64,000 nucleotides of DNA from Trichodelitschia bisporula (lineage: Eukaryota): NCBI GenBank assembly GCA_010356995.1, contig ML996692.1:259933-323932 (forward strand), written 5' to 3'. The position numbers were made by a program, and so were the translations under genes. The notes below the pieces were generated by a model that did not search any database, was not told the origin of the DNA, and saw only the letters and a program-made list of their open reading frames with translations. Below, in pieces: positions 15,036 through 59,520 of the stretch. Positions within the stretch are counted from its first letter, which is position 1. Every line of letters starts with the position of its first letter.

Positions 15036-15245
15036 TGGGAGCAAGGCTCTTCACGTGCAACAGGCGACTGGAAAATCTGAAGATTGAAGAGAGTCGAGAG
15101 ACTCTCGAGACTAAATACATGATGCCAAGTATCCTCATATGCTCCTGTCTTCCATCATGCACACATTAGAACTACATCATGGTTCCTTCACAAGAGCAAT
15201 CTGCTCCTTCCTGACATAACAATGCTCCTTCCATGTCTACATCAT
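15036..15245 (+). repeat. Dispersed ~220-bp repeat, copy A
   Basis: TGGGAGCAAGGCTC...GAGACTAAATACATGATGCCAAGT...CTTCCTGACATAACAATGCTCCTTCCATGTCTACATCA; aligns by eye with four other copies. Confidence 0.85.
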
Positions 15246-15571
15246 CGGTTGATGACGTGTGCTTGTGGGGTTGATCGCTCATGATCGTAGAAGACGAGTA
15301 TCTGCATCTGCTCGGATGTCTTGATAGACAGGGCCTAGCTTCCAGTCGCTGCTTTTTACCTCTACCTTCGGCTCGCGCTCCACTGACATACAATAAACGT
15401 GAGCTATGGTAACGTTTCGGTCATCTACATCCTCATAACCCGTATCTTTAGCTGAGAGCAGACCGATACCCTTGCCAAAACTCCGATATCCTGTCTCTGC
15501 CGAAATTAACTTCTACCTGACGCCGAATGTCATACTCCTGGTCAAATCGAGCATGCCATGCCTACCGTCCC

Positions 15572-16179
15572 TTACTTAGCCCCCTCCAAATTCTGCTGAA
15601 TATGTGCCCTCAACGCCGCCCACCTCCCGGCTCCCTGCTTCTCCTCTCCATCAACCTGCATTCCCTCCCCTGGCGTCACAGGCGCCTTCGCTGCCGCACT
15701 CAAAACCGCCAAATTCTTCCCAAAGCGCTCCCGCTCCGCCTTCTCCACCTTCTCCCGGCGCTTTCTCACACCTGGCTTGACTTTCAAACTCTCCACCGGT
15801 GCCGGGCCCTTCTTCCGCGCCTCCGTCTCAGCCGCTAGGTCCGGCAAAGCGTCGGCGAGCGTCTCGAGCGAGGCGACGAGCTTTTTGTTCGGCCGCCGGC
15901 GACGGAGGGACCCCGGTGTTGACTTGGTGATTTTGGAGAGGAAGAGGGAGCGCTTGATTGTGTGTTTGTCGCGCTTGGTGGTGGGGATGGAGAAGGCGGA
16001 GGATGTGTCTGAGGCCGAGGGGGTGGATTTGGAAGATTTGGAGGGCTTGTTGGATGGGCTGGGTTCGGAGAGCGCGGCGATGCTGCGCGTGTCGCGCGGG
16101 CGCGAGCGGGCGGAGGGGTTGGTTTTGGCCTGGAGATGTTAGTATGTATGGATAGAGGGATTTAGAGCAGACAGACCAT
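15572..16179 (-). CDS. SLX9: Ribosome biogenesis protein Slx9-like
   Basis: ATG-only first exon (16179-16177) and an intron, then AKTNPSARSR...KHDKRTIKRSLFLSKI...RRRRPNKKLVASLETLADALPDL...ERERFGKNLA...RWAALRAHIQQNL. Confidence 0.8.
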
Positions 16180-16504
16180 GATGGAATGCAAATTCCGCTT
16201 GTATGAGGGAGACAGGAATCGACGGTAGTGTTTCCTAGGGCAAAGAAATGCGTGCTCAAGATTCGAAGTTGACGATGTAAGTTGCCGTTCACCAAAATTC
16301 TCCAACGCCAAAATCCGGGGACCGCTAACCCAATTCAGCCAAGCCGCTGCCGCACCGCCACTTCTGTACGGCTACCTGCGCCACAATCAGCAGCCGGCCT
16401 CCAACCTCGGCCTCACGCCGACCCTCAAATCCCATGACCGAACAAGACGCAAAATGTAACCTTCACCACCCCGTCCCCCCTTACTCCGTACCAGCCATCC
16501 AACC

Positions 16505-17344
16505 ATGAAGCCCGCCAACCGCACCTTCATCATCTCCGGCGCCTGCTCCGGCCTCGGCCTCGCAACCGCGCGCGCCCTCCACGCAGCAGGCGCTTCAATC
16601 GCCCTCCTGGACCTGAACCACGTCGCCGGCGAGGCCATCGTCTCCGAGCTCGGCAAGGACACGGCGCGCTTCTGGGAGGTCGATGTTAGTGAGACTGAGA
16701 GCATTACTGCTGCTATTGCGGGGGCGGCGGCGTGGGTCAAGGAGACGGGGCGCGCGATCGGCGGCGTCGTTGCTGCGGCGGGGGTTGGGAGTGCGGCGAA
16801 GGTAGGCGGTTTGGCCCTGGGTTATGTCGGGTGGTGCTGATGAGGGTAGCTCGTGGACGGCCGCACGGGCGAGCCCGTCGGCATCGAGGCGCTGGACTTC
16901 GTGCTCAATATCAACCTGCGCGGCACGCTGGATCTACTCCGCCAGGCACTGCCGCACATGATCAAGACGACGCCGACGGCGGACGGCGAGCGCGGCGTGC
17001 TGATTCTGGTCTCTAGCTCTGCGGCGTTCGATGGCCAACCGGGGCAGGTGGCATATGCGGCGAGCAAGGGCGCTATCGCGAGTTTGACGCTGCCGTTGGC
17101 GAGGGATCTGGCGCGGTATGGCATTCGTGCTGTCACTATTGCGCCGAGTCTGTTCGAGAGCGCCATGACGGCGCGGTTGCCCGAAAAAGCGCGCAAGAGT
17201 CTCGAGCGCGTCATGGAGTTCCCCGTCAGGCCGGGAAAGCCGGAGGAGTTTGCGAGCCTGGCGATGCAGGCGGTGGAGAATCAAATGCTCAATGGGACGG
17301 TGATTAGGATTGATGGCGCGATGCGCATGCCCAGCAAAATGTAG
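16505..17344 (+). CDS. Short-chain dehydrogenase/reductase, 3-hydroxyacyl-CoA dehydrogenase type-2 (HSD10)-like
   Basis: SGACSGLG Rossmann motif, YAASKG catalytic motif, AAFDGQPGQ and NGTVIRIDGAMRM; intron ~16802-16848. Confidence 0.92.
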
Positions 17345-17395
17345 AATAGTATTTCAGTTTCCATGTACCATAACGCCGGTGCGCCTGGAGCGAAT

Positions 17396-18260
17396 CTACC
17401 GCTTCCGCTCACGGATCTTGAACTTCACGCCGTTTTTGTTGACTCCGCCTACGCCTTTGTTCATCCGCGCGCGCTGCTGCTCTAGCTGCTCTTCTGCCGT
17501 CTGGAGCTGCTCCTCCCGATCCCGCAGCGACGCGAGCAGTTGCCGTCGCGCACTATGGTTGCGTTCCCGCTTCTTGTCGTGCTTCCGCGACTCTTTCCAC
17601 GCCAGCTTTGCCGCCTCCTCCTGCTGCTTCGTCTTCGGCTTGTCTGGCGCCTCGGCCGTGGGCATCGGGTCGCCCTGGCCAAACCATGCCTTGGGATCAA
17701 ACTCCCGCTGCTCCTCCACCGTTTCCACAAACACAGTATGCTTCCCCTTGCTCGGACCGCCCTTGACCGCCCCCACCTTCACACTCTTGTCGTCCGCCTC
17801 CTCGACCTGGAACTCCTGTTCCAACCGCTCAATCTCCTTCCGCGTCTCCTGCAGCTTCGTCCGAATATACCCCGCATCCTGCGTCTTGAGCAAGCGGACA
17901 ATGTCCTGAGAAAGTGCCTTATTCCCGCGGTCGCCGAGACGCTGGCCCTTCGACGTGCGCGTCGACATCATCCCGAAGTGGAACTCATCTATGAGCATTA
18001 GTCGGCCTTATCCAGCCATAAACACGCGGAACCCGTACCGGGATTGCGAAACGAAGCCTTCTCCTTCAGGGCCTTCAGCCGTTGCTTCTTCTCCCTGTGA
18101 TCTTTGGCGCGCAGACTGTAGTCCTTGTGTTTCTCGAGCAGGCCCCATTTCTCGCGCTCGAGGGGCTGGGCGCGCTCCTTGTGGTTGCGCCTAGACTGTC
18201 AGCAAATGTATGTATGCGGGAAGGATCCTACCTTTGGACGGCATTGCGCATAGAAGACAT
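17396..18260 (-). CDS. UTP11: U3 snoRNA-associated protein 11
   Basis: [65 protein letters not shown]; two introns. Confidence 0.95.
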
Positions 18261-18801
18261 TGTGACTTGTGACGGGGAATGTGGTGAATTTGGGCGGCGA
18301 AGTTGATGAAGTTGAAAGTTGCGAACAATTTTGCCAAGATACAAGGGTCTGATGCAGGTGCATTGATAACCAAAATCGGACTTCACTTCATCGCCGAACT
18401 TCAGCCTGTCTTTCCAATGCCGGTCTCTCACCTTTCGAACCTTTGAAGCGCGAGAACAAAATGGATACCGATGACCTATCGCTGCCTTCTCTCTGCAGGC
18501 GTATAAGGATAGGGCGAAAAGCTAACGGCTGAACCGGAACACAATGTGGGGAACCAGTCCCGCATGAATTTACCCCGCCATCAGATCCACCTTCACCCAT
18601 AGCCGCGCATCAGTAGTCTGCATCACGCTCTCCAGGTGCTTCAGCTGTTCACCAAGACTTAGATTCCGTCGCCACGCGACAGGCCCCGCCAAAGGCGGGA
18701 GTCGACCGAATTATAGCGGAGAAATATACCCGACTTGCATGCCCATCCCTAGTACTTAAGCCCAAAGCCCATCCCATTCTGTCCCAAACACCAACCTCAC
18801 C

Positions 18802-19564
18802 ATGGCCGAAAACCTCGCAAAACCGCCCTTCCCCTTCACCGGGCCAGGCCTCCTGATCGCGCGCTCGCGGATCACCTCCCCTGAGCTCAGCGAGGACGTC
18901 TTCGAGCGCTGGTACAACGAAGTACACATCCCCGACGTCCTCGCGGTGGGAACCATCAGCGCAGCCTACCGCTTCCGCAACTCCAATCCCGCCGCCGAAG
19001 TCCCTTACCTCGCCGTATACACTGTACCGGAGTTCAGTAAGGTGGACATGGGCAAGCTAGGCGCGCTGCCCATGGCGCACGAAATGCTCCCCGGCGGCGG
19101 CACGATCACCGACTTCGTGGACATCGATTCGCAGTTTTATAAGCTGACGCAGGAGGAGGCGCAAAAGCTGAGCCAGGACGGTGCGTAGCGGGGCTTGGTT
19201 GCTACCCGTATGCGAGGCTGACGATCTAGCCTACTTCCCTGTCCTCCTTTCCGCGGCCATGGAGCCGGCAGCAGGTGGCGAGGCGGACTTTGACGCCTGG
19301 TACCGCGAGGAGCATCTCGACCAGATGGCAAAGGAGCCGGGACACAAGCGCGCGCGGCGCTACAGGCTGGCGTTTCAGAATACGCCGGCGGGTATGTCCG
19401 GCGCGGATGCACCGAGCTGGCTTACGCTGTACGAGTTTGATGAGTCGGGGAAGGAGAAGTTGGGGACTGAAGTTAAGCCGCTGGACCCGATGACGCCGTG
19501 GACGAAGAGGATGCTGGAGACGGCGCAGAGGGTGGAGGCCGCTATTTACTATAGGATCTTCTAG
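18802..19564 (+). CDS. EthD/DABB-like tandem-domain protein
   Basis: Two repeats, FERWYNEVHIPDV and FDAWYREEHLDQM; intron ~19181-19229. Confidence 0.75.
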
Positions 19565-20569
19565 GGAATCGGATAATCCTTTATCTGTGTTGCTTGGATT
19601 AGAAGTGGTGTTGAACTCGCGTCTCCCTTTCCCCAGCCTTTCAAACCGACCTCCTATTCAGCCTCGCGATTCAGATAGGTTATGAAGACACAGGACAACA
19701 AGCAACAACTCGGGTTTACTGCTGGTCACCAACAAGATGCATTGCCAGTTAAGCAAGCTGAACTAATATGAGCGTGTCGCGAGGCACGTGCAATGCATCG
19801 TATGCTCCTTCCACCCTTGCTCAGGGTTCCTTTTTGTCTTTGTCCTCCGCGGCATCCCCAGGTAAGAATGCTCCTTTCACGAATATCAATCTTCTCTCCT
19901 TACATCAACATTGTCAGAGGGATTCACCTGAAGCATTTGGCCGATTACCAACCTCTCCCTTCATCATCTTTCAGCCGCATTGAGAGGTCAGTACATCTTT
20001 TCACCTCTCACTCTCGCCATCACGAAGTTTACTGTTCCTCCACCATATCATGCATCGACATGAAGGTCATGAAGCGCTGGGACTCGCTCTTCGTTCCAAG
20101 CACGTGTACAACCTGCGATAGGCCCCATCTCCCTCGAGTAGGTGCTTCACGCCGCGCAGGAGCGGGCATCGCTAAGAGCAAAAAAGAGACAAAAACATAC
20201 AGCAACTGGGATTCGCTGCTGGTCACCCACGCAACTACTAGTCAGTCGGTTCGTGGGTTCACTTCAGTGAGCAGACGGGGACTGGTGCTTTCCGCGACCT
20301 ATGGCCGTATGTGCTAGAGCACTGCTGGAAGACAGTACTGATACCCCGCTTCGGCAAGCGATGGGAGCTTATGCTCCATGAACCCCGCTCAGAACAACCA
20401 GGAGAGTACTCTGAATCCAGATTTAGGATAATTAAACATCTGATATAAACCACAGGCGTGGCGCTCAATAGGGATATCTACAACCAATGCAAAGGGCTTC
20501 CCTAGCCAGCCTAAGCCCAAACGCCATCGCTATGCCCATTTCAATGCAAAAAGATCCCCCCAAAAGCCC

Positions 20570-24084: not shown

Positions 24085-24383
24085 CTGATGGAAAGATAAG
24101 GCAGGAGCATTGTTATGTCAGGAAGGAACAGGTTGGACGTGACGTAATGTGCTCGTAGTTGAAGGAAGGAGCATCGGAGGGCATTGGGTATTTATTCTTG
24201 AGAGTCTCTTCCTCTCTTCCTCTTCCTCTCTTCCTCTTCCTCTCTTCCTCTCTTCCTCTCTTCCTCTCTTCCTCTCTTCCTCTCTTCCTCTCTTCCTCTC
24301 TTCCTCTCTTCCTCTCTTTGTCTTTTTCTAATCTTCCACTTTCACAGTCGCCTGTTGCACATGGATGAGCCTTGCTCCCATTA
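24085..24383 (-). repeat. Dispersed repeat, copy B, with an internal microsatellite expansion
   Basis: Reverse complement reads AATGGGAGCAAGGCTCATCCATGTGCAACAGGCGACTG...AGAATAAATAC...TTCCTTCCTGACATAACAATGCTCC. Confidence 0.85.
24205..24317. repeat. (CTCTTCCT)n octamer-like microsatellite
   Basis: Seen directly in the sequence. Confidence 0.95.
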
Positions 24384-24670
24384 CCCCCGGTGCCGTCGTT
24401 GCAATTCCACTTGAAGTTAGAAGTCCATCACTTCCGAAGGAGAGAGTGAGGTATCAACATTGGAATGCCATGGTTGTTCAAGCTACTGACAGTAGTGATG
24501 ATTTATAGATGTAACCATGACTGTTGATGGTTGTCTTAAACAGGAACGCGATACACTCAATCAAAATGCAAAAGCCAGTCCAACTTTGCACGCTCTCCTG
24601 GTTCGGTTAAGCAAAAAGCCTCGTATGCGATCCTCAGTCCGCCAAAAGTCTCAGCAAGATCATCTTCCCT

Positions 24671-27363: not shown

Positions 27364-28958
27364 TCACAGCTTGACATCGCCCAATACCTCCGTCTCCCGG
27401 ACCTCATCGTTCCGCCCGCCCGTCTCCTCCCCAATGCTCATCCGTCTATCCTCACTCGTAACTTCCATGTCCACAGGCAGCCACCCTCTCACTCCACCCT
27501 CTGGATTCAAAATCCTCCAGTCACCACCCTTCTTCCCCTCCCCCCCACCATCCAACGGCTCCTCGCCCTCAAGGGGACTATACCCCGCAACCACCGTCCC
27601 ATTCTCCCTCAAAACCTGCAAGATAGCCCTAACATTCAACCTTAAGTACCGCTCCGGCTCCGTCGCTTTGAGCACCCTCCCCGTAATCCAAGGAAACAAA
27701 ATTCCAAAATCGCTTTGACTGAGATGCGCACTCGCCTCAGGATAGAAAATATACGGCCCCCTTCGCTCCTGCTCCACCTTCTCATCATCATCGCTGACTG
27801 CCGTCCTCGGCGCCAGCACCACCTTCGTATCATTCAGATTCCCATGCCACCGCCAAAACGCCTCGCTCAGCACGCTGAGCACCGCCTTCCCGCCCGCACC
27901 CCCGGGCTCGTACGCCGGGAGCTGCTTTTCGAAGAATTGTTCAGCGGAGGGACTGGTCAGCGGCAGCGCCCACATATCGAGCAGCGCCAGAACCGAGCTC
28001 TTCGTAATCTGGCGCACAATACCCGCGTCCCTTGCGGGGATAAACGGGCCCCCCATCTCCTCCCCCCCATAATAAGCACTCTTAACCACCGTCACCACCG
28101 TCGCCGCCCCAAACGAATGCCCCGCCCAAGCCACCCGTCCAGGCCGCAAATCCAACCTCCCCACAAAGCTCCCCAGCACATCCTCCTCCACCCCGCCCAC
28201 CCCAAGATTCGGATCCAAATTCCGCATCTCCGCCCCCTCGCCAATCTTCTCCAACGCTGCGTACAGTACGCCGATTTCCCACCCCCGAATCCGCACCTGC
28301 GCGTCCCGCGCCGCGTACACCTCCGCCGTCGGCTTATGCGGGTGAATCTGATACGACACACTCGTCGACGCGCCCCCATCCGGCGCACGCACGAACGCCA
28401 TCGGCGCAGACCCATCCCTGTGCTCAGGCGCCACGACGATAATCCCATGCGAGGCGAGCTCGCCCAGCAGCGCGGAGTACGCATTCCGGCTCCCGGCCAG
28501 GCCGTGTGAGAAGACGAGGACGGGCCATGCGGGGCCCGGGGGGTGGAGGAGGGGGGCGTTGCGGCGGGCGGGGATGGTGGTGTAGTAGAGGACGTTGGGG
28601 GCGAGGCTGGAGGAGGGGGNNNNNNNNNNNNNNNNNNNNNNNNNNNNNNNNNNNNNNNNTACGATACTGCGGTGCTGAGCAGGCTCCCTGCCCCGAGGAA
28701 GCGCGCGTACGCGGCGAAGTGCGCTTTTTGCGGTGAGGGGAGCCAGCGGATTGGGCGCGAGGGGCCGGATCCGGCAGCGGGGTAGAAGAGGCGGAAGGCG
28801 ATTGTGGCAGGCGCGTTGGGCGGGGGGGATCCAGGGGATGGGAGGTCCGCGGCGCTGAGTTCGACGTCGCAGCTGCCTACGGGGTAGGGGCCTGAGTACG
28901 GCGGGAGGGAGGGGACGAGGCGGGAGGGGACGAGGCGGGAGGGCGAGAACCAGGACAT
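27364..28958 (-). CDS. Platelet-activating factor acetylhydrolase-like alpha/beta hydrolase (spans an assembly gap)
   Basis: LPPYSGPYPVGS, FRLFYP, VFSHGLAGSRNAYS, APEHRDGSAP, nucleophile GHSFG and AHLSQSDF. Confidence 0.9.
28620..28659. other. Assembly gap (N run)
   Basis: Run of n characters. Confidence 1.
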
Positions 28959-30369: not shown

Positions 30370-31149
30370 CAGTGATGCCGTTCTCTCGGTAAGTAAACTT
30401 GATATTTCAATTGGAAAATGGCTTCTTCTACAGACCAGAATACATGTACGTGATAACGGCCAAGGTGCCACTCGAAAACTTTCCCTGCCCCCGATGGGAT
30501 ACTTGTTTGCGCGAAGTTTGCAGCGAGGTGATCTAGATGTTTTTCCAAGTTACTGGAGCGGGGGAGAGGGTGGTATCAAGACATCGTGATCGTGCTCAAA
30601 ACTGACTTGTCCGAACTGGTTGCAATGACTGACTACGGATCGAAGGACAAGCCGGTATTAATACACACTACTAAGCCCAAACAAATGGCCAGGTAGATTC
30701 CGATTGAAATCGACCGTCACTTCCTGCAAACTAATGCCTTCCGAACGATAATTCACGCCTACGCCAACAGGTTCCAGGCACTGGCACGGCCCCACTCAGT
30801 AGAGCAGTGCCCGCCCGACCGAAGGCAGCCGCCACGCTATCCACACAGAACAGAGAGACACTCCTCGCCCTCATCACCTTTGCGAGCACCCCCCCAGCCC
30901 GCTCTATCTACCCATTCTGTTCGGGAGAGTAGGGCGCGGATTTCGGAACGTGGATTTCCTTGCGAAGGCCCGGTGAGCCATACGCCGCCCCCGGTGCAGT
31001 TTCTTGGTCGTGATGGAGTCGAGAGACCTTGTGACCTAGATCTAGCCTTCCGCGAGCTCGGCATTCCCCTGATTAAGGGGATCCAGCTTGGGAATATCTT
31101 CGTCGCTATTGGATGTTGTATTTCCGTCGCTATCGGGTGTTGAGGGCTC

Positions 31150-31520
31150 GAAAAGCGAGTGCCGAAGGAGTCGACCATCCGCGATGCCCTGCTCTTTCAG
31201 GATGCGCTTGATCTCTGCTCTGCCACAGGTGCGAAGCCTCCCTCCCATCAGACCTGGTACGGGCAGCCAGCTCCAGTGGGTCACGTAGCCTCCTAAGCAA
31301 AATTGCGACCAGCCCGCCAGTGCTGGTGCCATATATTGCGTCAAATTATACAGCTGGAATTAGGGCTTCTCCACTGAACACCTGTCTTTCATCTGGATGT
31401 TTATCCAGCTCAATGCGGTTCTCCTCCCTGGCAACCTCATCCATATGCTCCTTGAAGAGCAGGAGGCCTGGCGAAGCCCCGGATCCCCCCTGGTCCAATG
31501 TCAAGATGGACGGAGTCCAT
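31150..31520 (-). pseudogene. Patatin-like phospholipase relic
   Basis: ILTLDQGGSGASPGLLLFKEHM (degenerate DGGG box)...LIPAV*FDAIYGTSTGGLVAILLRRL; in-frame TAA at 31348-31346. Confidence 0.8.
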
Positions 31521-32439
31521 TGCCCCGTGCGGTCTGTAGAATCGGGGGTTGATTCAATGGCTCCCCACCACCATGCTTCCGTCGGTATTTCAAGTGCCAT
31601 GAGGTGGCTATTGGTCCAATTGGAAGTGGAAACCATGAACTTTGGGTCTTTGACTTTCCCCGAGATCTCGTCGGGCGCCATCGTTGACCGGTGCTGAGAG
31701 TGCTGGTTTGCACGGGGCGAAGGTAGAGTGAGGCGTTGGTCGTGGTCTCGGAGAATGCTGGTTTGTGCGGGGCGAGGGTAAAGGTGTTGTTGAGAGTAAA
31801 GAAAAAGCGGACTAGTAGAGTGGCGTTGAGTTGTCGTGGGCGGTGTGCGGCGGTGGCGGTGGGCTCGGAGTTAGTAGAAGGCAAGCTCGGAGGAGGGTGA
31901 AGGGAGCTATTCAGACCATTGCTTGGATCTGGCGGGGAGTCACTAGCCGCCTTCTTCTTCTGGGCCCGATAGCCTTGCCATATGCGTCATCCATGTGCTT
32001 CTCGAGCAGCCATTGGGAGGCCCATTGCCCTTCGAAGTGGCGATGGAGCCACGGGGACTGGGTGTGCAGACGGGAGAGCATACGCTCTATCTTATCATCT
32101 CGCACGCTGCTCCACCTCTTTTTAACCCTCGGGCGCCGCTTTCCCTGCGCTTCCAAAATAACAGAACGCATAGCCCATCGGACCTTAGATGCCAGCAAGC
32201 CTAGCTTCGGCTTACTGTTGTCGAAATCCCAGGTGCTGCCAAAGCTTCCAGATTTTGGTCTGATGAGGTAGACAAGGTGTGTGCATGTCTGGGCTGCTGC
32301 TTGCCGTCACTCACCCCGGGCTAGCGGGGTGATTGAGAGCGAAGAAGACGTAACCCATGCATGCCAGAACGCAGCAACACAAAGAGAACACGAGACGAGA
32401 CTGACACACAGTGCCTTACTGCCGCAGGCGGGTGTAGGT

Positions 32440-34671: not shown

Positions 34672-36928
34672 ATGACGGCAACGAGCTCGCCAGCCACGTC
34701 GTCTTCCGACGAAGGCACCTTCACCTCCATCCCCGTGCTCTCCCTCGCGCAGGCCCGCGACCCAGCCACAAAGTCCGCATTCCTAACCGCACTCCGCGAC
34801 GCCCTACTCAACATCGGCTTCCTCTACCTCTCAGACACCGGCATCCCAGACGCCCTCTTCGACCAAGTATGCACCGAAACGCTCAACTTCTTCAACGAGA
34901 CCACCCTCCCGCTAGACGAGAAACTCAAAATCGAAATGAAGAACGAAAAGAGCTTCCTAGGCTGGAGCCGGGTGCGTTAATCTTTATATCTCTTCCCTAT
35001 GTTCTATTTCCTTGGCCCCTTCGTTTTGATTTCACTTTCACTACTGTCACTACTGTCACTGTCACCCGTCCCCGCTGTCAATACGTCAACCGACTCGCGC
35101 CCCTCCCCTCACTTACTCGCGCTGCATACCCTCCCTCCCCCGCCTTACTCGCCCCCCGCCCAAGCGCCCTTGGTCCCCTCCCCTCCACCCATTGCGCAGC
35201 ATACAGTGCATAGCATGCACTCCTCAATTTCTCTCCGTGGCGAACCGGCGCGCGGATCAGCGCTGCGTTCGCCCGTTTCTGCAAAGCATGCGCAGCTCAG
35301 GGGCGGCAACACTGCCGACGCGAGGGGCGGCTAGCGCGGCGTTGACGGCGAGGCCCTTGACCGCTGTCGCGCAGGCGGGAGCTGGCGATGGCGAATGCGA
35401 TTGCGTTCTATCATATCCTTGCGGCCCACGCGGCGGGCTTGGGCCTTGTTGGGAACCTTCTTCTTGGCCGCCTCGTGGTTGATAGGCAGCGCGGTGGCGG
35501 GCTAGATTGGCGACGCTGGTGGGCCGCGCGTTGATGCTGCTGTTGGTGCGGCACGGAGTGGCCGAAGGGGGGGTTCTGGAATTTGACTTTGAGACGTGGG
35601 GGGAGAGGGGTGGGGGGTCGTTGTTGGGGTGTAAGTTGGGTTTACGGTGGCGAGATGGTTTGTAAGATTGGGGGGTGGGTTTTGTTACCGGTCGTCAGTC
35701 AGCCTTGCGTGCGATTGTCGGTATGGTGATCATGGCTGAGGAAGCGGTTTGCTTCTGGGTTCTATGCCGATGGTTACGGTCTTGCTTTTTCTGCTGTTCA
35801 GCCTTGCTCGTACCCGGCCAGCCTTGGGCCTCGTTTTCTTTGCTTTCTCTTCGATCCACTCTTTCATTTTCAGCCTTGCTATTCTCCTTCCTATCTTCCT
35901 TCGATCTCTTTCATTTCAGTCTTGCTCTCATCTCCATCTTCAGCCTCGCCTCCACCCACCCACCAGCTAACCCCCGCAGCTCAACAACGAAACCACCGCC
36001 CACCGCCCCGATTACCGCGAACAACTCGACCTCAGCACTCCACAACCTCTCCCCACCCCAACAGATCCCCTGTACTGGAACCTCAAAGGCCCAAACCAAT
36101 GGCCCTCCCCCGCGCACCTCCCCTCCTTCCGCCCCGTCCTCGAGCAGTACATGTCCCTCATGTCCTCCCTCTCCACAACCTTCACCTCCCTCATCGCCGA
36201 AGCAATCTCCCTCCCCCCCACCGCCTTCGATTCCTTCTTCGACGCAAACCAGCAACACAAACTCAAAATCGTAAAATACCCGGAAGCACCCACCTCCTCT
36301 CTTAAACCAGAAGATCGCCAAGGTGTAGGCCCGCACAAAGACTCCATGCTCACGAGTTACCTCCTCCAAGCCTCCCCCCAACTTGGCCTCCAAGCGCAAA
36401 ACCGTGCCGGCGATTGGATTGATGTACCTCCCATCCCCCGTACCCTGGTGGTAGCTATCGGCCAAGGCCTCGAGGCACTGACCGCAGGCGTATGCGCCGC
36501 AACATCGCACCGCGTGCTCTCCCCCGCCAGAGGCTCCGGTCCGCGCTACTCCGTCCCCTTCTTCCAAGGCGTGTCCTACGATGCCCAGTTCGAAGCCGTC
36601 GAAGTACCGGCCCACGTACTGCAATTAAGGGATAGGTCGAGGGCGCGGGCGGGCAAAGACGACGTTGAGTTCACGTTCGTGAAGGGGCGGTGGGGACATT
36701 TGGGGGAGGCGACGCTGTGGAATCGGGTTAAGAGTCATCCGGATGTTGGGGAGCGATGGGTGAGTACCTCTGCTGTGTGTCGTGTGGGGGCAAAGGGCTA
36801 GTTCTAATGAGCGGTGCTAGTATCCGGAGCTGTTGGCGAAGATAAGGGAGACGCAGAAGGCGGAAGCTGAGGCGGCGAGTGCTGCTGCTGCTGCGCAGCC
36901 GGCGGCGGCGGCGGTGGTGGCTGCGTAA
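34672..36928 (+). CDS. 2-oxoglutarate/Fe(II)-dependent oxygenase (DIOX_N + 2OG-FeII_Oxy, IPNS-like)
   Basis: IPVLSL..NIGFLYLSDTGI; HKD (HxD), distal H in SHRV, RYSVPFF. Exons 34672-34971, 35980-36759 and 36821-36928. Confidence 0.93.
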
Positions 36929-36934
36929 GCCTTT

Positions 36935-37165
36935 GATGGGAGCACTGGTCTAACACGTTTACAACGGCAACTGTATATCCGTAAACTGAAGAATTGAAGT
37001 AGTAAGACGAGGAGAGGAAGAAGAATCAGAGACTTCTCAGGAACTTAAATACACTATGCCAAGTTATCCTCCTTTGCTCCTTCCCTCTATTCATGCGCTC
37101 ATTACATCATGCCCCCTAGTTCGCACCTTACTGACATAAGAATACTCATTCCATGTCCGCATCAG
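36935..37165 (+). repeat. Dispersed repeat, copy C
   Basis: GATGGGAGCACTGGTCTAACAC...CTTAAATACACTATGCCAAGT...CTGACATAAGAATACTCATTCCATGTCCGCATCAGC. Confidence 0.85.
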
Positions 37166-37807
37166 CCTTCGTGAACGAAACCCTAGCAAAGGAAGGCCAG
37201 CGGGACGAGGGTTGAACCGAACATTGTTACTTTCTCGCTCGCGCGAAATCTCAGCCGTAGTATGTAAGCGGGTCTTAGTTACAAGAAAAGCCAAATGCAT
37301 CCATAACAGCGTGCGTTCATTCGCTTGCTTTCAAACGTACACATCAGAAGCAGACCAAGGACCAAAAACACCGAATGATGAAAAGGTAGTCGCGAACAAT
37401 GGGGCCAACTTCTCTTCCCAGGCGATTAGCGGGAATCAAGGCCAACGAAGTGAAAACAAGCAAAACAACTCCATTCAAAACCCATTGCAAGGAAAAGAAG
37501 ACAAAGTCTACCCACCGCATCACATCATCCCCTCATCACCCTGGTGCCCTCCCTCCGCCTTCGCCGACCCATATGCCCAAAAGGATCATGTACAAGAAAA
37601 GACCATCTTCGCTCGCCATCGACCGTAACGCATCACCATCACCATCACCGATCCACCCCTTTTCCTCAACACCCATCGCGCCATGCCACACGCCATGCCC
37701 AGAACACCGCCTCCGCCAGGAGGTAAAGCAAGGAACCTCGTCATCGCAGCCGTATTACACCGTCCCACATCCCACACCAGCGCTTCACTCCCTCTTCATC
37801 ACCGCCC

Positions 37808-47049: not shown

Positions 47050-47135
47050 CCGAAGCCCAACGAAGCCATAGCGAAGCCATTCCGAAGCCCAGCGAAGGCC
47101 ATCCGAAGCCCAGCGAAGGCCATCCGAAGCCTCAC
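47050..47135. repeat. Tandem array of CGAAG(G)CC units with a ~21-bp higher-order period
   Basis: CCGAAGCCCAGCGAAGGCCAT repeated. Confidence 0.85.
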
Positions 47136-49324: not shown

Positions 49325-49472
49325 AAGCTGATGTGGACATGAGGAAGGAGCATTGCTAGGTGTGAAGGAACATGATGTAAGGAAGGAACATGAGAGGACA
49401 TTTGCCACATCGTGTATTTAGTCTCGAGCGTCTCTTGACTCTCTTCCTCTCTTTGTCTTCTACGAAACTGCC
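49325..49472 (-). repeat. Dispersed repeat, copy D (5'-truncated)
   Basis: Reverse complement reads AAAGAGAGGAAGAGAGTCAAGAGACGCTCGAGACTAAATACACGATG...TTACATCATG...CAATGCTCCTTCCTCATGTCCACATCAGC. Confidence 0.8.
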
Positions 49473-49475
49473 TAT

Positions 49476-51128: not shown

Positions 51129-51596
51129 AGCTCGGGTTTCTTTCGTTCGGGATTGAACCGGTAAGCTGTTAACGCTCCAAATCACGCGAACAGGTCACTG
51201 CAGTTCTAAGTACCTGCGGCTCCGCGCTCAATTCTCCAATAGGCGGAACCTCAGGCGTTCCGTTTAATCTATTCGCCGTTTGACGCCCGTAGTTGAAGCG
51301 CGCACGTCGTTCCGCGCCCAGTCGGGCCTGGTAAGGTGGGGGTGTGGCGCTTGGCGATCGGGTCGGGCCGGTTGGTGGGCGGAGCCGCGGACCGCGATGT
51401 GGATACGCGGGGTACGAAGGGGAGGAACGAGCCTCACGAACGGAGACAAGTAGCACGCGGAACGTCGAGATAGAAAGCGTACAGTGTAGTGCATAAAACA
51501 GCTGCTCTTGGGGAAATATACACGCGCCCCTATCCACGCCAAAATGCTCAAACGCTTCACACGCAACACAAAGAAACCACGATAACCCATGTGCAA

Positions 51597-54500
51597 CTAC
51601 ACCTCCAAATCCCTAAGCGGGACATACGCCGCGCTTCCCCTCCGCGCACCGCGCCCGCCCTTGACCCTCTCCACCAACCCCCCAATCCACTCCCGCACTT
51701 CCCACGCGGGCTCAACTTTCTCCCCCGCCTGCCCCGCGCGCTCCGGGTCCAGCACCGCCACGGACATCCACCGCGGCCGTCTCCACCACCTCAACGCCAA
51801 AGAACTACAAACAACGCTAACACTCGAGCACGCCATCGCCGCCCCCGCCGCCATCGGATGCAACGACAATCCCCAAGGCAAAAAGAACCCCATCGCAAAC
51901 GGCAACCCAACCAAATTGTACCCACACGCCCAAATCAGATTCGCCCTTATCCTACCAAATATCGCGCGGCTCAGATGCAGCGCCGCGGGCACGGCGAGCA
52001 GATCGGATGAGGTGGAGGACATGAGCACCACGTCCGCGGCTTCCATTGCTACGTCGGTCCCGGAACTGAGGGCGATGCCGATGGCGGCGGTGGCGAGGGC
52101 GGGGGAGTCGTTTATGCCGTCGCCGACCATGGCTACGACCTGCCCCTTACCGCCCTGGGAGGTGGGGAGTTGGAGGGTTTCGATGAGGGATCGCTTCGTG
52201 GAGGGTGTGCAGGAGGCGTGCACGGCGGAGGGGGGGATGCCGACTTGTGCCGCGACGATCAGGGCGGGTGCGAGGGCGTCGCCGGTTACGATGCTGGAGG
52301 ATATGCCGAGGCGGGAGAGAGCGAGAACGCACGCCCGCGCTGAGGGCTTGAGGGTGTCGCTCAGCGCGAGCGAACCGGCGTAGGCGCCGTCGATGGCGAC
52401 GTGGATTGTCGTCGTGCCCGCACTCGGCAGCCTACTGGGGTGCGGTGCGCTCAGCGTGTCGGTCGAGTCCCCGGCCCCATCGGCAGCGGGCACGCCCAGC
52501 GTATCCACCGGGACGGGCACGCCTTGTTCTGCCAGGAAGGAGGGATTACCGAGGACGACGCGGTGGCGCGTACGCTGGGCGTCGATGGCTGCTTCGACGC
52601 TCGCGATGATGCCTTTGCCGACTACGGCTTCGAAATCGCCCGCTGAGCCGTCGGGCGCGGCGTCGGTGCCGAGGTGCAGGTGTTCCCGCGCTGCCGCGAC
52701 GATGGCGCGGGCGACGGGGTGTTCGGAGGACATTTCGGCGAGCCCGACGAGGGTCCACCAGAGCCTCTGCGCGGCGGGGGCGGAGAACGAGGAAGTTATG
52801 GAGGCACGCGAGACGCGCATGTGTCCCACGGTCAGCGTGCCCGTTTTGTCGAACACGACGTGGGTTATTTTGGTTGCGGTTTCGAGGGCCGCGCCGCCTT
52901 TGATCAGAATCCCCTTCTCGGCGCCTACGCCCGTGCCTACCATCACCGCGGTGGGTGTGGACAGGCCCAGCGCGCATGGGCACGCGAAGACGATGACGGA
53001 AATGCAGAGTTTGACGCATACCATAGTCTTCCCGCCTGACTCGGCGGCAAGGAAGATGGGCGGGGGGGTGGGGAGGAAGTGGCTGAGGATCATCCAGGCG
53101 ACGAAAGTCGCGGCGCCGAGGGTTATGATTACGGATACAAAGACGCCGGCGACTTGGTCGGCTATGCGCTGGATCGGCGCGCGGCTGGTTTGGGCTTCTT
53201 GCACGAGGCGCACGATTTGGCTGAGCTGGGTGTCGCGTCCGGCGCGCGTGACTAGGAAATCGACGCGGCCTTCGCCGTTGACGGTGCCGGCCATGAGGAG
53301 CGAGTCCTTCTTTTTGAGGATGGGCATTGCTTCGCCCGTCACCATGCTTTCGTTCACATAGCTCTCGCCGCGCAGGACCGTGCCATCCGCCGGGATCTTG
53401 TCGCCGGGGCGCAGGAGGACTACGTCACCGACCTCGATCAGTTCGGTGGGAATAACGCGCTCGGCCGAGCTGTCTCCGCTGATACTCTTCCGCGGTCCCG
53501 AGGCCTTCTCGTCATACGAATCCCATTCCTCGGCTGCTTTGGCGGCGGCGATGGGGTCGGTGTAGATAGTCGCCATGGAGGGGGCGAGGGACATGAGGTG
53601 CGAGAGGGCCTTAGACGTCTGCCCCTTAGCGCGGTTCTCGATGTAGCGCCCGAGGGTGATGAATGTGATGAGCATGGAGCTGGTGTCGAAGACGGTGCTG
53701 GGGCGGGAGTGCGGCGGGTAGATAAGCGAGACGAGCATGGCGGCGACGCTGAAGAAGAAGGCTGCGGACGTGCCTAGTACGACGAGGACGTCCATTGTTG
53801 GGGAGCCGTGGCGCATAGATTTGTAGGCTGAGATGTAGAAGCGCCGGCCGATGCCGAATTGGACTGGGATTGTGAGGGCCAGACAGACTACGTCGCCGAG
53901 CCAGAGACCTTGGGTGAGTGGTATGCTGCCGTAGTCCAGGAAGGGTAAAAGCATGGGGAAGACCATCGATGTGAAGAAGACGGGCAGCGCGAACATGACG
54001 GACGTGTGGAATGCGCGGCGCCACTCTTGGATCTCCTTCGTCTTCGCCAGTGACTCCAGCTGCGCGTTGTTGTCGTCCGCATCGGCCACCAGAGCGTTGT
54101 ACCCTGCCGCCTCGACCGCCTCCACGATGGCGCGCAGGCCGACCGTCGCCGGACGATGCGTGATGGCGGCGCGCGAGGTGAGAAAGCTGACCGACACAGC
54201 CGACACGCCAGCCATGCCCGTGATGAGCGCCTCCAGCCCGCTCGCCGCCTCCACATCCCTCATCCCATAGACCTTGAGGTAACTCGTCGCATTTGCCGTC
54301 GACTGCGCCAGCACATCAACGCTCGACACAATCCGCGCATCAAACCCACGCTCCTCAATAATCTCCGCCACGCGCTGCGCCGAAAGCTTCACCGGGTCGT
54401 GAACGACAACAGCGCGCTCCGCCAGCAAACTGATGTTAAACTGCATAACGCCGTCGAGATCGCGGAACCCGCCTTCAACCGCAGCCGTGCACGCGCCGCA

Positions 54501-55166
54501 CGTCATGCCCCCGATAGCAACCGTCGTGCTCAGCGTGCTCTGCTGCGCCGCGCCTTTTCTTCGTCGTTTCTGCTGGGCCACCGCCTCGGCCGTCTGTGTA
54601 TCCGTGACGGTCGCCTCAAAGCCCGCATCCTCGATAATTTCCGCGATGCGCGCTGGCGGCAGCACACTCGCATCGTGTTCCACAACCGCGCGCTCCGCCA
54701 GCAGCGAAATGCTAAACGAACGCACGCCCGCGACATTCCGAAACGCACCCTCGACCGCCGCCGTACACGCACCACACGTCATCCCGCCCACCGCCACCGT
54801 CGTGGTCACCAGCCCTTTATCCGTCTCCCCCAACAGCAGCGCGTCCTCTCCATCGCTCTCCTCCACCTCTTCCAGCGGGATATCAGACGCCAGCACCTCG
54901 GCGTCAAACCCGCGCTCCTCAATGAGTTGTCGCACACGCTCGGGGGATACGCGGGCCGGGTCGTGCACCACGACCGCGCGCTCCATGACCAGGCTCACGG
55001 AGACGCTGGCGACGCCGGGGAGGGAGGCGAAGGCGGCCTCGACGGAGGAGGTGCAGGCGCCGCAGGTCATGCCTTCGACGCGGAGGGTCGTGGTCGCCAT
55101 GTGGGGTGTTGTCATGGCGGATTTATCGGGGGGAGGAGGGGCGCAGGGCCGCGACGGAGGGGGCAT
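51597..55166 (-). CDS. CCC2: Copper-transporting P1B-type ATPase (Ccc2/CtpA type)
   Basis: Three GMTCGAC HMA motifs plus TGE, CPC, DKTGT, SEHP, GDGINDSP, YN and MACSS. Confidence 0.95.
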   Translation of the reverse strand: MPPPSRPCAPPPPDKSAMTTPHMATTTLRVEGMTCGACTSSVEAAFASLPGVASVSVSLVMERAVVVHDPARVSPERVRQLIEERGFDAEVLASDIPLEEVEESDGEDALLLGETDKGLVTTTVAVGGMTCGACTAAVEGAFRNVAGVRSFSISLLAERAVVEHDASVLPPARIAEIIEDAGFEATVTDTQTAEAVAQQKRRRKGAAQQSTLSTTVAIGGMTCGACTAAVEGGFRDLDGVMQFNISLLAERAVVVHDPVKLSAQRVAEIIEERGFDARIVSSVDVLAQSTANATSYLKVYGMRDVEAASGLEALITGMAGVSAVSVSFLTSRAAITHRPATVGLRAIVEAVEAAGYNALVADADDNNAQLESLAKTKEIQEWRRAFHTSVMFALPVFFTSMVFPMLLPFLDYGSIPLTQGLWLGDVVCLALTIPVQFGIGRRFYISAYKSMRHGSPTMDVLVVLGTSAAFFFSVAAMLVSLIYPPHSRPSTVFDTSSMLITFITLGRYIENRAKGQTSKALSHLMSLAPSMATIYTDPIAAAKAAEEWDSYDEKASGPRKSISGDSSAERVIPTELIEVGDVVLLRPGDKIPADGTVLRGESYVNESMVTGEAMPILKKKDSLLMAGTVNGEGRVDFLVTRAGRDTQLSQIVRLVQEAQTSRAPIQRIADQVAGVFVSVIITLGAATFVAWMILSHFLPTPPPIFLAAESGGKTMVCVKLCISVIVFACPCALGLSTPTAVMVGTGVGAEKGILIKGGAALETATKITHVVFDKTGTLTVGHMRVSRASITSSFSAPAAQRLWWTLVGLAEMSSEHPVARAIVAAAREHLHLGTDAAPDGSAGDFEAVVGKGIIASVEAAIDAQRTRHRVVLGNPSFLAEQGVPVPVDTLGVPAADGAGDSTDTLSAPHPSRLPSAGTTTIHVAIDGAYAGSLALSDTLKPSARACVLALSRLGISSSIVTGDALAPALIVAAQVGIPPSAVHASCTPSTKRSLIETLQLPTSQGGKGQVVAMVGDGINDSPALATAAIGIALSSGTDVAMEAADVVLMSSTSSDLLAVPAALHLSRAIFGRIRANLIWACGYNLVGLPFAMGFFLPWGLSLHPMAAGAAMACSSVSVVCSSLALRWWRRPRWMSVAVLDPERAGQAGEKVEPAWEVREWIGGLVERVKGGRGARRGSAAYVPLRDLEV

Positions 55167-57164
55167 TGCGGGTGTGTTTGAGGAGTTTGGCGGAGTTGGG
55201 TTCAGCTCCGGATTAACAGACGCTGCTGCGTTCGGAGGTTGGGGATGCCCTTTGCAGGGCCAGGAAGTGAGATGCGCCGGAGATGCTGAGGACGGAAACA
55301 GGTGCCGAGGATTGAGAGTGGGAGGCGAAGGGACGATGGGGATAAGGATAAGGTGATGCGACCGATTAGGACATGTGTACAGAGAGCAATGTAGCGTGAG
55401 CAGAAAAATGAGAAGATTATAGATTGCAGTCGCTTGGGGGGGATGGGGACCTGAAAGCGAAGGCGATGAGGTGTCGAGACTGGGGGAGATCCCTGTCCAC
55501 GAGAAAGAGTCGAGCGAGAGGCTTAGCCGCGACGGTGAGAGGTGGCTGGCTTGTTCGCCCCCGTTGTTTCCGCAGTTTAACCCGTCAGCCTCTCACTGCT
55601 GGAGTCAGCTCAACTGCGAGTTGGAGGTGTAGAGGGCTATTTTAGGAGACGCCGACTTTCTTGTATGACCGTGGAGATGGTGTATTTCAAAGCACAAAGG
55701 AGACGTGAAGGAACGACAACAACAACAACAGCGAAGACATCAATCACTTCTTAAACGTCGTATCTGTTTCTTCTTCTACTCCCCCTGATTCCTCATTCGT
55801 AATCCGGAGTCGGAGGTGGGCGGCGTGTCAACTCTTTCCGCGTATCATCAGGGGTGGTCGTGAGACACTCGCAGTTTGGGTCTGTGTAAGTAGTTTTGAA
55901 CTGTTCCATCACCCACAGGCAACCTCTCCTCCAAGTGGGAGAGTCACGGCCAAGGGGTTCGTCGTTTGTGATTGTCATGCTAAGCTTTGCTTCGCCAAAC
56001 ACTTCGGGCCAGGTACATCCGGCTCTGAAGGGTGAAATCGCGAAACGTCGAAGCCGCACTGACTCCGGAGTATCACACGGTGACCCGCGCAATTTATTGA
56101 GCAGGCGATCGGAATCTCCAGCGGATAAGAGTCGCGCGGAATCTACCCAATGTCGCAGCCGCCGGCTGCTTCTGTTCAGCTCAGCGACGGCCTCGGAGAA
56201 ATATGTAAACATCTCATGAAGCAGAGGACGCACTCCGTAACTGGTCTACCTTATCTTCAACTTGTTCCCGTCCTCACTTCAGCCGTGCCGGCGGACTGGA
56301 CTGCATTCCGGGCCTCCCCAATACACTCCGAACTCCGGAAACCCCACCAATCCGGCTTCACCGTTCCCATCCCAGCATTCAGCGATCCTCGGCACGCCTT
56401 CAGCCGCATGCAAGCGACAGGCACTCCTGTGACACCCCACCACGCGCCACTCGTGCTCAACAGCCTCACTTCACTACATAGTAGGGTACCGTACTCACGG
56501 ATAGAGTTCTCCATGCTCTCTCATGGCCATGAGCCGACCGTCATTCGTGAGCGAGTACTTATTCCCAACATAAGGGTAGATGTAATCGACTCGGGACTGA
56601 CAAGAGGGGAAATATGCCTCACCAGCGCTGGTTGTCGAACAGCTAGCTAGTAAAGCTTGAAAGCGTTGTCTTTCTTCTCCACTGTCCTTGGATGTAGCCT
56701 ACACGGCTCATGAAATGCAATCGACATCGTAGAGCGATACATCGCCTTCGCGGCAGAGTCCGTAATACGCAGCTGGAACTCTCCCAGCTGAATTCCCCTC
56801 CTGCCTCGTCAACTGGCACTTCATCACGAAGATCTCGTCGGCTTCGCCAAACATGCGCAAGCCTGTCCTGCGGCATGCGGACCACATTGAGCGCGTTCAT
56901 AGAGCATAGACTGCAACTTACGGAGTGCGTGCAGTCGTTAAATCCCCATCCACGCCGTCTGCGCTTCGGCTCGCTTCCGCGCTCCATCCCTAGCGTCATT
57001 CCGGCCCAGTCCAAAATGCCAAGATTTCGCCATGCATCCGTGCACAGACCAGTCAATCCTCGAACTTCACGAAATAATTTCTACAGTAGCGCATTCGTTC
57101 ACAGCAACGCTCTCCACCAATTTACTCCAACATCCCCCACTAATCGACGAAACGCACCAGTGCC

Positions 57165-59288
57165 ATGGATCCCTTCAAGCTCCTAACGCGGTCCACGAAC
57201 CTGAACAAGAAAGCTTCGGAGAAGAGAAAGACGGCAAATGCGCAAAAGCCTCTTCCGAGCAGTGGCCAGCTTCCGAATTCGCGGCGCGAAGTCGATAGTG
57301 ATGAAGACCACACTGGCAGTGACGAGCATGGCACGGGGAGGTTGACGCCCCTCCGCAAGCGAAAACGCAACAGTGGCACTGCTGCCGCAGAAGAGTTGCC
57401 GGCCGAGCTCGATTTTTTTGGAGAAAGCCAGGCGCAGCAGCAGGGACGACACAAGCGGAGCAAAGGCATCCCCGAGGGCGACGCTTCTTCCTCCAAAACT
57501 CCCGAACTCCCTGCGGGCGAGACGCTGGGTTTCGAGAGATGCAAGAAACTCTTGAAGGGATTCAAGGCCAAAGTCATAGTACTCCGGAATCCCGTCCTGA
57601 CCACAGACACCCCCATCCTCGCGACCGAGTCCGACCAGGAACTGGCGGAGAGCAAGCACAAAGACAGCCTGTATCCAAGTCCGCTGCGTGCCTTTAAGGA
57701 GCTAAGCGCTCATTACGGCATATCGGCGAAACTAGTTAAAAACATCCTCAACTACGGTTACCAGATGCCAACTCCAGTCCAGTCCACCACACTCCCCCTC
57801 CTCTTGGAGGGCCCAGCGTATCGGCATCATGGGAAGAAGTGGCACCGTCACTCGCCCGGCACTGGTAGCCACTTGATTACCATAGCTCCCACTGGCAGCG
57901 GCAAAACGCTTGCTTTTCTGATACCCATCTTCAGCTCCTTGTACCAGGAGCGCTACGTCCAACTTAAAGAGAACCCCTCGTCGACGCTCAAGGAGGATGG
58001 CCCGTACGCCGTTGTGCTGGCGCCAACAAAGGAGCTGGCATATCAAATTGCCAACGAGGGGCGGAAGCTGGCGCTCAACACCGGCATTCGGATCTCTGTC
58101 ATGACCAAGGGAATGAGGATCGGCTCCACGCGCGATGGGGAAGAGGCGGAATCTGAGGATAACGACGAGGAAACCGGCGCGGGGAAATGCAACCCCAATG
58201 CGCCGGTCGTGAAATCTCACGTTCTTGTCTCAACGCCAATGGCCATGCTCAACGCTCTCCGGGAAGAAGATGGGTCTGTAATCGACCTCAAATCGACCCG
58301 CTTCCTCGTCCTCGACGAAGCAGATATCCTCCTCGACCCGCTCTTCCGCGAGCAGACTATCGCCGTGTGCAAAGCGCACACAAGCCCCAGCCTCCGCGTC
58401 TCCCTCTGGTCCGCCACCATGTCCTCCTCAATCCAAGAACTAGCCGAATCCCTCCTCACACCTCACCCCGGCCCCACCTTCCGCATCATCATCGGCCTCC
58501 AAGACTCCGCCCTCCCCACAATCTCCCACAAGCTAACCTATTGTGCAACCGAGCAAGGCAAGCTCCTCGCCCTCCGCCAACTCCTCGCCCCCACCGCCCC
58601 ATCCTCTCGCTCCAACGCAACCCAATCCCTCCGCCCCCCCTTCCTCATCTTCACACAAACAATCGCCCGCGCCAAAGCCCTCCACGCGGAGCTGCGCTAC
58701 GACATTCCCGCTGCAGCGGGCGGCTCCTCGCGCATTGCAGCGCTGCACTCCGAACTACCAGATAGGATGCGCTCGCGGATCATGGCCGATTTCCGTAGGG
58801 GCGAGATCTGGGTCATCATCACTACGGACCTAATGGCGCGGGGCCTGGACTTTGCGGGCTTGAACGGCGTGGTGAATTACGATGTCCCGAACTCGGCGGC
58901 GACGTATGTACACCGTGCGGGGCGGACGGGGCGCGCGGGGCGTGAGGGCGGCGTCGCGGTTACGCTGTTTACGGAGGCGGATGTGCCGTATGTGCGGTCT
59001 ATTGCGAATGTGATCCGGACGAGCGAGAAAGCGGAGGGGAAGGAGGTACTTAGCGTGCCGGATTGGTTGATGGAGTGTTTGCCCGCGCCGAGTAAGCAGG
59101 CTAAGAAGGATCTGAAGTTGCATGGGGTGAAGGAGCGACGCAGTGGGAAGGAAGCGATGATTAGCACGAAGAGCAGTTATGATCGTCGGGCGAGGGTGAA
59201 GAAGATGGAGATGAGGGGGGCGAAAGGGAGGGTTGGTAAGAGCAGGGCCTTGGAGGATAAAGATGATCAGGGTGAGGCGGCGGACTAG
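57165..59288 (+). CDS. ROK1: ATP-dependent DEAD-box RNA helicase Rok1
   Basis: MDPFKLLTRST N-terminus, APTGSGKT, PTKELA, LDEAD, SAT, RPPFLIFTQT and HRAGRTGR. Confidence 0.93.
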   Translation: MDPFKLLTRSTNLNKKASEKRKTANAQKPLPSSGQLPNSRREVDSDEDHTGSDEHGTGRLTPLRKRKRNSGTAAAEELPAELDFFGESQAQQQGRHKRSKGIPEGDASSSKTPELPAGETLGFERCKKLLKGFKAKVIVLRNPVLTTDTPILATESDQELAESKHKDSLYPSPLRAFKELSAHYGISAKLVKNILNYGYQMPTPVQSTTLPLLLEGPAYRHHGKKWHRHSPGTGSHLITIAPTGSGKTLAFLIPIFSSLYQERYVQLKENPSSTLKEDGPYAVVLAPTKELAYQIANEGRKLALNTGIRISVMTKGMRIGSTRDGEEAESEDNDEETGAGKCNPNAPVVKSHVLVSTPMAMLNALREEDGSVIDLKSTRFLVLDEADILLDPLFREQTIAVCKAHTSPSLRVSLWSATMSSSIQELAESLLTPHPGPTFRIIIGLQDSALPTISHKLTYCATEQGKLLALRQLLAPTAPSSRSNATQSLRPPFLIFTQTIARAKALHAELRYDIPAAAGGSSRIAALHSELPDRMRSRIMADFRRGEIWVIITTDLMARGLDFAGLNGVVNYDVPNSAATYVHRAGRTGRAGREGGVAVTLFTEADVPYVRSIANVIRTSEKAEGKEVLSVPDWLMECLPAPSKQAKKDLKLHGVKERRSGKEAMISTKSSYDRRARVKKMEMRGAKGRVGKSRALEDKDDQGEAAD

Positions 59289-59304
59289 CGGAGTAACCGA
59301 TGGT

Positions 59305-59520
59305 GACGGGAGCAAAGCTCTAACACAGGCAACGGCAACTGTGTTAACTCAAGATTGAAGTATAAGAGCAAGAGAGGAAGGGAGTCAGAGGCTCTTGAGA
59401 CTAAATACATAATGCCAAGTATCCTTCATTGCTCCTTCTTCCTGTCATGTGTTTATTACATCATGGCCCTTGGTATGTACCTTCCTGACATAACAACGCT
59501 CCTTCCATGTCCACATCACC
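59305..59520 (+). repeat. Dispersed repeat, copy E
   Basis: GACGGGAGCAAAGCTCTAACAC...GAGACTAAATACATAATGCCAAGT...CTTCCTGACATAACAACGCTCCTTCCATGTCCACATCA. Confidence 0.88.

Follow-up and report, generated by a model that had tools for sequence, protein, structure and literature searches.

A high-copy element resembling a solo LTR lies preferentially in the 3' flanks of genes in Trichodelitschia bisporula

To our knowledge, the fungal retrotransposons with described targets go to promoters, RNA polymerase III genes or heterochromatin. Here we describe a dispersed element of about 215 bp in the genome of Trichodelitschia bisporula, referred to below as the unit, whose placement relative to genes is the mirror image of that of Tf1. 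Five of its copies lie in the stretch of DNA that was analyzed, a window of 64,000 nucleotides (contig ML996692.1 of assembly GCA_010356995.1, positions 259,933 to 323,932 of the forward strand). Read as a solo long terminal repeat (LTR) the family is ordinary, whereas its measured placement is not.

As described in the cited sections of the respective reports, the solo LTRs of the fission-yeast elements Tcry1 and Tosmo (PMC10085805) and of the Saccharomyces cerevisiae Ty elements (PMC7175516) resemble the unit in having TG..CA ends that form a 5-bp terminal inverted repeat, perfect 5-bp target-site duplications (TSDs), no internal sequence and a large excess of solo over full copies. The unit differs from them in that no parent was found among the loci inspected and in the form of its ends, TGATG..CATCA. 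Families known solely as solo LTRs are present in Cryptococcus (PMC7175516). With regard to placement, the same sections report that a 5' end is the nearer gene end for 83% of S. pombe Tf LTRs (PMC7175516), that these LTRs are rare between convergent genes (PMC10085805), and that Cryptococcus T1, and Hermes in yeast, prefer divergent intervals (PMC9942834). Like the unit, Tf1/Tf2, T1 and Hermes are confined there to the intergenic DNA of a compact genome and cluster no more than a few hundred bases from a gene end; however, they favor promoters, whereas the unit is nearer a 3' end at 83 of 95 sites and is enriched about fourfold in convergent intervals. The LTRs of S. osmophilus, 24% of which occupy convergent regions that make up 15% of intergenic length (PMC10085805), present a mild version of the latter bias. 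Searches of the open-licence literature yielded no fungal LTR element that targets the 3' ends of genes.

The unit is probably a solo LTR whose parent was an old and apparently extinct LTR retrotransposon; the placement of the copies would reflect a lean at insertion combined with subsequent selection. The window represents 64 kb of a 25.8-Mb assembly in 44 contigs (it lies on contig C6), and its genes are spliced and of the filamentous-ascomycete type. The five copies claimed in an earlier note on this DNA are all present and homologous to one another, with 68-85% identity over their aligned parts:

15033..15244, + strand: full-length copy of 212 bp, antisense to the SLX9 gene and 327 nt past the SLX9 stop
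15028..15032, + strand: left 5-bp TSD (TCGGT) of the 15033 copy; the second TSD copy is at 15245-15249
24086..24383, - strand: full-length copy of 298 bp, made longer by a tandem purine expansion within it; TSD lost (3 mismatches)
36934..37164, + strand: full-length copy of 231 bp, sense, starting 5 nt past the stop of a 2OG-Fe(II) oxygenase gene
36929..36933, + strand: left 5-bp TSD (GCCTT) of the 36934 copy, abutting the stop codon TAA at 36926-36928; the second TSD copy is at 37165-37169
49329..~49464, - strand: 5'-truncated copy (profile positions 56-216), sense, about 11 nt past the GH1 stop codon TAG at 49478-49476
59304..59518, + strand: full-length copy of 215 bp, sense, 15 nt past the ROK1 stop codon TAG at 59286-59288, between convergent genes; TSD lost (4 mismatches)
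59402..59407, + strand: TATA-like hexamer TAAATA of putative function, at about position 98 of the 59304 copy, preceded by its purine-rich 5' half and followed by its pyrimidine-rich 3' half

Three copies start within 20 nt past a stop codon on the sense strand, at 5, 11 and 15 nt, which confirms what had been noticed behind the 2OG-oxygenase, GH1 and ROK1 genes. As a description of all five, a position just behind stop codons does not hold: the 15033 copy is 327 nt away and in antisense, and no gene is predicted within 1.2 kb of the 24086-24383 copy. Positions 24200-24320 within this last copy consist of a tandemly expanded 8-nt purine unit, and similar expansions occur in other copies.

Genome-wide pattern searches bore out the suggestion that the element is high-copy. 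A 21-nt piece of its 3' part had 141 matches in the genome at up to 3 mismatches (reversed control, 0), and a 17-nt piece of its 5' end had 147 at up to 2 mismatches (control, 10). Since 30 of the 73 best 5'-end matches were already in the set fetched for analysis, which comprises 126 copies in 117 clusters, the family is estimated at about 300 copies. This amounts to less than one copy per 64 kb over 25.8 Mb, and the window is therefore a local cluster. The exact 21-nt pattern had no match in metagenome contigs. Among 71 full copies the median identity was 76%, nearest neighbors were 71-89% identical, about 13% of bases departed from the column majority, and no young copy was seen; conservation was flat along the element, at 0.82-0.90. 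The family is thus old, and its copies have decayed like neutral DNA. The rate of C-to-T change was 0.091 at CpA, 0.083 at CpC, 0.070 at CpT and 0.150 at CpG; as it is not raised at CpA, there is no signature of repeat-induced point mutation (RIP), in agreement with the proposal that so short an element escapes RIP, if RIP operates in this fungus.

The termini of the unit were analyzed in the 86 copies with both ends defined, the other 40 of the 126 lacking one defined end. A 5-bp TSD was perfect in 24 of the 86 and had at most one mismatch in 46, compared with 0.32 and 2.41 in shuffled pairs, and flanking duplications of 2-4 or 6-10 bp gave no signal in the same copies. The 5' end is TG in 61 and TA in 17 (the commonest starts being TGATG in 44 and TAATG in 15, with a minor subfamily carrying variant starts), and the 3' end is CA in 69, typically CATCA. 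The terminal five bases are complementary at 77-89% and form a 5-bp inverted repeat. The description of the ends as roughly TG...CA was therefore accurate, but the statement that no TSD or terminal inverted repeat is visible was not, as two of the four full-length window copies also retain a perfect TSD (TCGGT, GCCTT). The reported lack of an open reading frame (ORF) and of a poly-A tail stands: the longest frame from an ATG has a median of 41 aa and a maximum of 72 in 66 copies, and none of the 86 has an A-rich 3' flank. A TATA-like word near position 98 is present on the sense strand of 33 of 71 copies and on the antisense strand of 2, in an element whose 5' half is purine-rich and whose 3' half is pyrimidine-rich. 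The complement of the box AGGAGCA occurs in 67 of the 71.

This layout has counterparts in the same genome. The terminal repeats of its elements bearing reverse transcriptase (RT) or integrase were found as blocks of 141-268 bp, and those of copia type have, like the unit, a TATA-like word in the middle and a 3' part rich in pyrimidines. One copy of the unit and one of these LTRs share an 11-nt TATA word. A sensitive profile search detected no homology between the unit and those terminal repeats. Taken by its anatomy, that is, by a TSD fixed at 5 bp, TG..CA ends, size and a TATA-like layout resembling that of intact LTRs in this genome, the unit is supported as a putative solo LTR, one of the origins that the earlier note had proposed. 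Fungal GalEa copia LTRs, which occur in Pezizomycotina, are about 235 bp long (138-311) with a 5-bp TSD, a 3' CA and a TGT start in the cited part of their description (PMC5445492); size, TSD and 3' end are like those of the unit, which differs in starting with TGA.

Other classes of short elements were also considered. Short interspersed nuclear elements (SINEs) have a head derived from tRNA or 5S RNA with a B box, an A-rich tail and a variable TSD. A SINE was rejected: there was no Rfam match at the window copies, a B box was present in 0 of 66 copies, an A-rich 3' flank is missing as stated above, and the TSD is fixed in length. Miniature inverted-repeat transposable elements (MITEs) are defined by terminal inverted repeats of at least 10 bp and stem-loop potential. 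In the unit no inverted repeat longer than 5 bp was found in 66 copies, whose end-to-end local alignment scored 12.65 against 12.67 for shuffled sequence with only scattered matches past the first 5 bp, and no unusual fold was found in 20 copies (mean folding z -0.35). Ginger-like DDE transposases, however, leave TG..CA ends and 5-bp TSDs, and the unit could be a non-autonomous, MITE-like DNA transposon moved by such an enzyme. Its being always directly bordered by the TSD, its dispersal near genes and the failure to find an LTR parent among the inspected loci would be in keeping with this origin; the very short inverted repeat, the unremarkable fold and the strand asymmetry of the TATA-like layout argue against it, and we consider it improbable. 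TRIM or SMART elements were set aside, as the ends of the unit contain no direct repeat (first against last 90 nt, 12.0; shuffled, 11.6; 66 copies). SMARTs consist, in the cited section of their description, of an internal part, with a primer-binding site (PBS) and a polypurine tract, enclosed by two direct repeats of 85 bp, and favor introns (PMC3281118); the unit shares with them its shortness, a 5-bp TSD and a location near genes, but has no such repeats and never lies inside predicted genes.

Placement was measured at the 110 independent sites that had 1 kb of flanking sequence (7 of the 117 clusters, with less flank, were dropped), against controls that retain the element-bearing intervals. 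All 126 copies lie clear of the predicted exons and introns. The nearest gene end was a 3' end at 83 sites and a 5' end at 12, with no gene end within 1 kb at 15, whereas 48% of near-gene control positions are nearest a 3' end (47% in the window alone; p=2e-15). Observed-to-expected ratios were 3.7 at 0-50 nt past the stop, 0.9 at 50-100 nt, 2.6-2.9 at 100-400 nt and 2.1 at 400-600 nt, but only 0-0.3 in the 400 nt next to a start. Of the 110 sites, 35 are in convergent intervals, which hold 8% of control positions, an enrichment of about fourfold. Gene-distant DNA is underpopulated, with 15 sites against 29 expected, so that 83 of 98 sites are 3'-proximal where 57% would be expected (p=7e-9). 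A hold-out of eight copies chosen by their 5' pattern, among 18 listed, gave seven nearest a 3' end, none nearest a 5' end and one near neither. The wider bias towards 3' flanks is solid and unusual. The 3'-end preference proposed from the window consequently extends genome-wide, but a start about 20 nt behind a stop does not: only 8 of the 110 sites (7%; expected, 0.8) lie within 20 nt past a sense stop, three of them in the window, and 14 lie within 100 nt. One copy (L076:5160-5374; G000:C1:1208159) begins behind the telomerase reverse transcriptase gene, 3 nt past its stop.

The claim that copies are always on the sense strand applies only close to stops. Within 50 nt of a stop, 12 copies are sense and one is antisense (9 and 1 without the window copies, p=0.02), whereas the 83 copies nearest a 3' end divide into 40 sense and 43 antisense. 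The two near-stop copies of the hold-out were one of each kind, sense at 47 nt and antisense 15 nt from a predicted stop, so that the hold-out did not independently confirm the near-stop sense bias.

Two of the window copies are transcribed as part of an mRNA tail. RNA contigs of ROK1 extend over the first 113-116 nt of the 59304 copy, and spliced GH1 RNA contigs reach 29-61 nt into the 49329 copy. These contigs (X3, X4) come from one sample in which no run is recorded as RNA and in which spliced joints are present. They end 9-12 nt past the TATA-like word in ROK1 (X3, X4) and in GH1 (X3), and 16 nt before it in GH1 (X4); given a single sample, and since contigs break at repeats, these ends were not taken as poly(A) sites. 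A single RNA contig, 51511-59416, covers a divergent heavy-metal ATPase gene, ROK1 and the DNA between them, and may reflect an overlap of long 5' ends or carry-over of DNA. We also considered that insertions had cut off coding ends and supplied new stops, and rejected this, as in silico removal of the element left the predicted stop unmoved in all 17 sense cases within 110 nt. As a separate observation, ROK1 is a median of 6 residues shorter than 119 homologues, and its end (window 59166-59288) is without a short, conserved-looking acidic-aromatic tail found in most of the ten top homologues; the flank gives no pointer to insertion as the cause.

The same data bear on the earlier suggestion that the sequence was co-opted as a portable 3' untranslated region (3'UTR) or polyadenylation module. 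Such a domestication would resemble that of the SIDER retroposons in Leishmania. In the cited section of their description, SIDER1 and SIDER2 derive from non-LTR elements, lie almost all in 3'UTRs and have shown effects on mRNA stability (PMC2323293). Like the unit they are extinct, degenerate, high-copy, short retro-elements at gene 3' ends; the unit, known here from its placement in sequence, differs in being of LTR type, mostly more than 100 nt from a stop, and in both orientations. The 12 of 110 copies that start within 50 nt past a sense stop, among them those behind ROK1 and telomerase, and the extension of ROK1 and spliced GH1 RNA contigs into the element are what such a module would predict. 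The small number within 100 nt of a sense stop, the near-even split of orientations among 3'-proximal copies and the antisense hold-out copy close to a predicted stop run counter to it, and with flat conservation and no stable fold the proposal finds little support. Domestication of the family as a whole is unlikely, and we give the module very little credence.

The solo-LTR reading that we favor would entail the following history. An old LTR retrotransposon, of copia or gypsy type, would have multiplied in a burst, its integrase inserting full elements by a 5-bp staggered cut, as indicated by the TSDs and termini. Recombination between the two LTRs would then have reduced each site to one LTR, and the remaining copies would have undergone the neutral decay described above. 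Insertion may have occurred into open intergenic DNA with a lean towards gene 3' flanks, most simply because chromatin is open at gene ends, and selection would have purged insertions in coding DNA and promoters. Within 3'UTRs mostly sense copies would have survived and antisense copies been lost, since a sense LTR would bring its own 3'-end signals whereas an antisense LTR would have its promoter facing the gene. In the few genes concerned, the LTR would be a tolerated passenger of the mRNA tail rather than a recruited module.

Several observations weigh against this account. The first is that no parent element was recovered. Matches in the genome numbered 8 to integrase, 20 to copia-RT and 13 to RVT_1. 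Inspection covered every one of the integrase loci together with 20 RT-type places and others, leaving aside three LINE-like RVT_1 places (C3, C22), C33 and C15. Among the inspected loci none of the 126 copies bounds an RT or integrase locus, and one copy lying 2 kb from a copia RT remnant carries its own TSD. The flanks of the 126 copies (of about 300) include no shared flank resembling an internal region and none resembling a PBS, their all-versus-all comparison yielding only tRNA-like, 5S, tandem and local duplicate matches. As no parent was found, the label LTR rests on anatomy, and 40 of the 86 copies have no good TSD, from age or inter-element recombination. Furthermore, genes were called with a small model trained on the fetched DNA rather than taken from annotation; in checks, the model recovers the Pfam-confirmed window genes and the splice joints of the RNA contigs, and 5 of 9 last exons ahead of near-stop copies outside the window have a Pfam match, telomerase included. 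Finally, if selection were acting alone, copies should be no scarcer in gene-distant DNA than in 3' flanks; the 3' flanks are fuller, which argues for some real preference at insertion. In a single genome, targeting and selection are not separable.

That preference may have been an active one. The unit would again derive from a solo LTR, but the integrase would have been tethered to the zones where transcription terminates, for instance via 3'-end processing factors or the chromatin of terminators, giving a safe haven opposite to the promoter targeting of Tf1. The excess of 3'-flank over gene-distant sites and the frequency of convergent intervals fit such a tether, as do the 8 of 117 clusters with two or more matches within 600 bp. 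Nested insertions also speak for it: two copies of a subfamily lie inside older copies, solo within solo (L081:4887-5301 and L092:4899-5155). Both have perfect 5-bp TSDs of their own, share one orientation and went in immediately downstream of the TATA-like word, at sites 2 nt apart. The nested cases are, however, only two, and no integrase remains for inspection. An unrelated copia LTR of 141 bp, compared in 16 fetched copies of 40 listed, is mostly far from genes (8 of 16 without a gene within 1 kb, 5 nearest a 3' end); this control is not independent, since 6 of the 16 copies (L138-L153) have the same left flank and are thus located in, and moved with, another repeat. In addition, all copies of the unit are old and selection has acted on them, and some of the control DNA counted as gene-distant may in fact belong to long promoters or to genes that the model missed, or may postdate the burst. 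We therefore hold this tethered origin to be possible rather than probable. In its full form it would state that the integrase of this lineage was aimed at zones of RNA polymerase II termination, placing copies 0-600 nt past gene ends as well as in convergent intervals and avoiding promoters, and that sense copies in 3'UTRs took over 3'-end formation of host mRNAs and so became targets themselves, a proposal that we put forward tentatively.

If targeting was involved, transcription ends would be a new kind of safe haven, and the family would offer a lead to an integrase for gene-sparing insertion. If selection was responsible, the copies would amount to a clean natural readout of the places at which an insert of 215 bp is tolerated in a compact fungal genome, and would indicate that orientation matters inside 3'UTRs.

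Some further observations concern the copies and the remainder of the window. At G000:C3:61662-61722 two element 5' ends face each other on opposite strands with 60 bp between them. A tRNA or tRNA-like sequence lies no more than about 300 nt from each of three copies (L080:7957-8061, L109 ~5080-5200 and L089), and ARAGORN called only the L080 case, a tRNA-Met with an intron. The sole Rfam match in the window is a dispersed 5S rRNA gene at 20194-20312 (- strand), and positions 28620-28659 are 40 N. A weak match to an ORF of a retroelement-rich locus lies at 30761-31030, and at 31284-31534 a 252-bp stretch with 86% identity to a stretch on C19 (L102) may be another repeat or a gene relic. A HET-domain gene occupies positions 118-963, and its paralogues of about 60% identity adjoin retroelement loci on C25 and C31.

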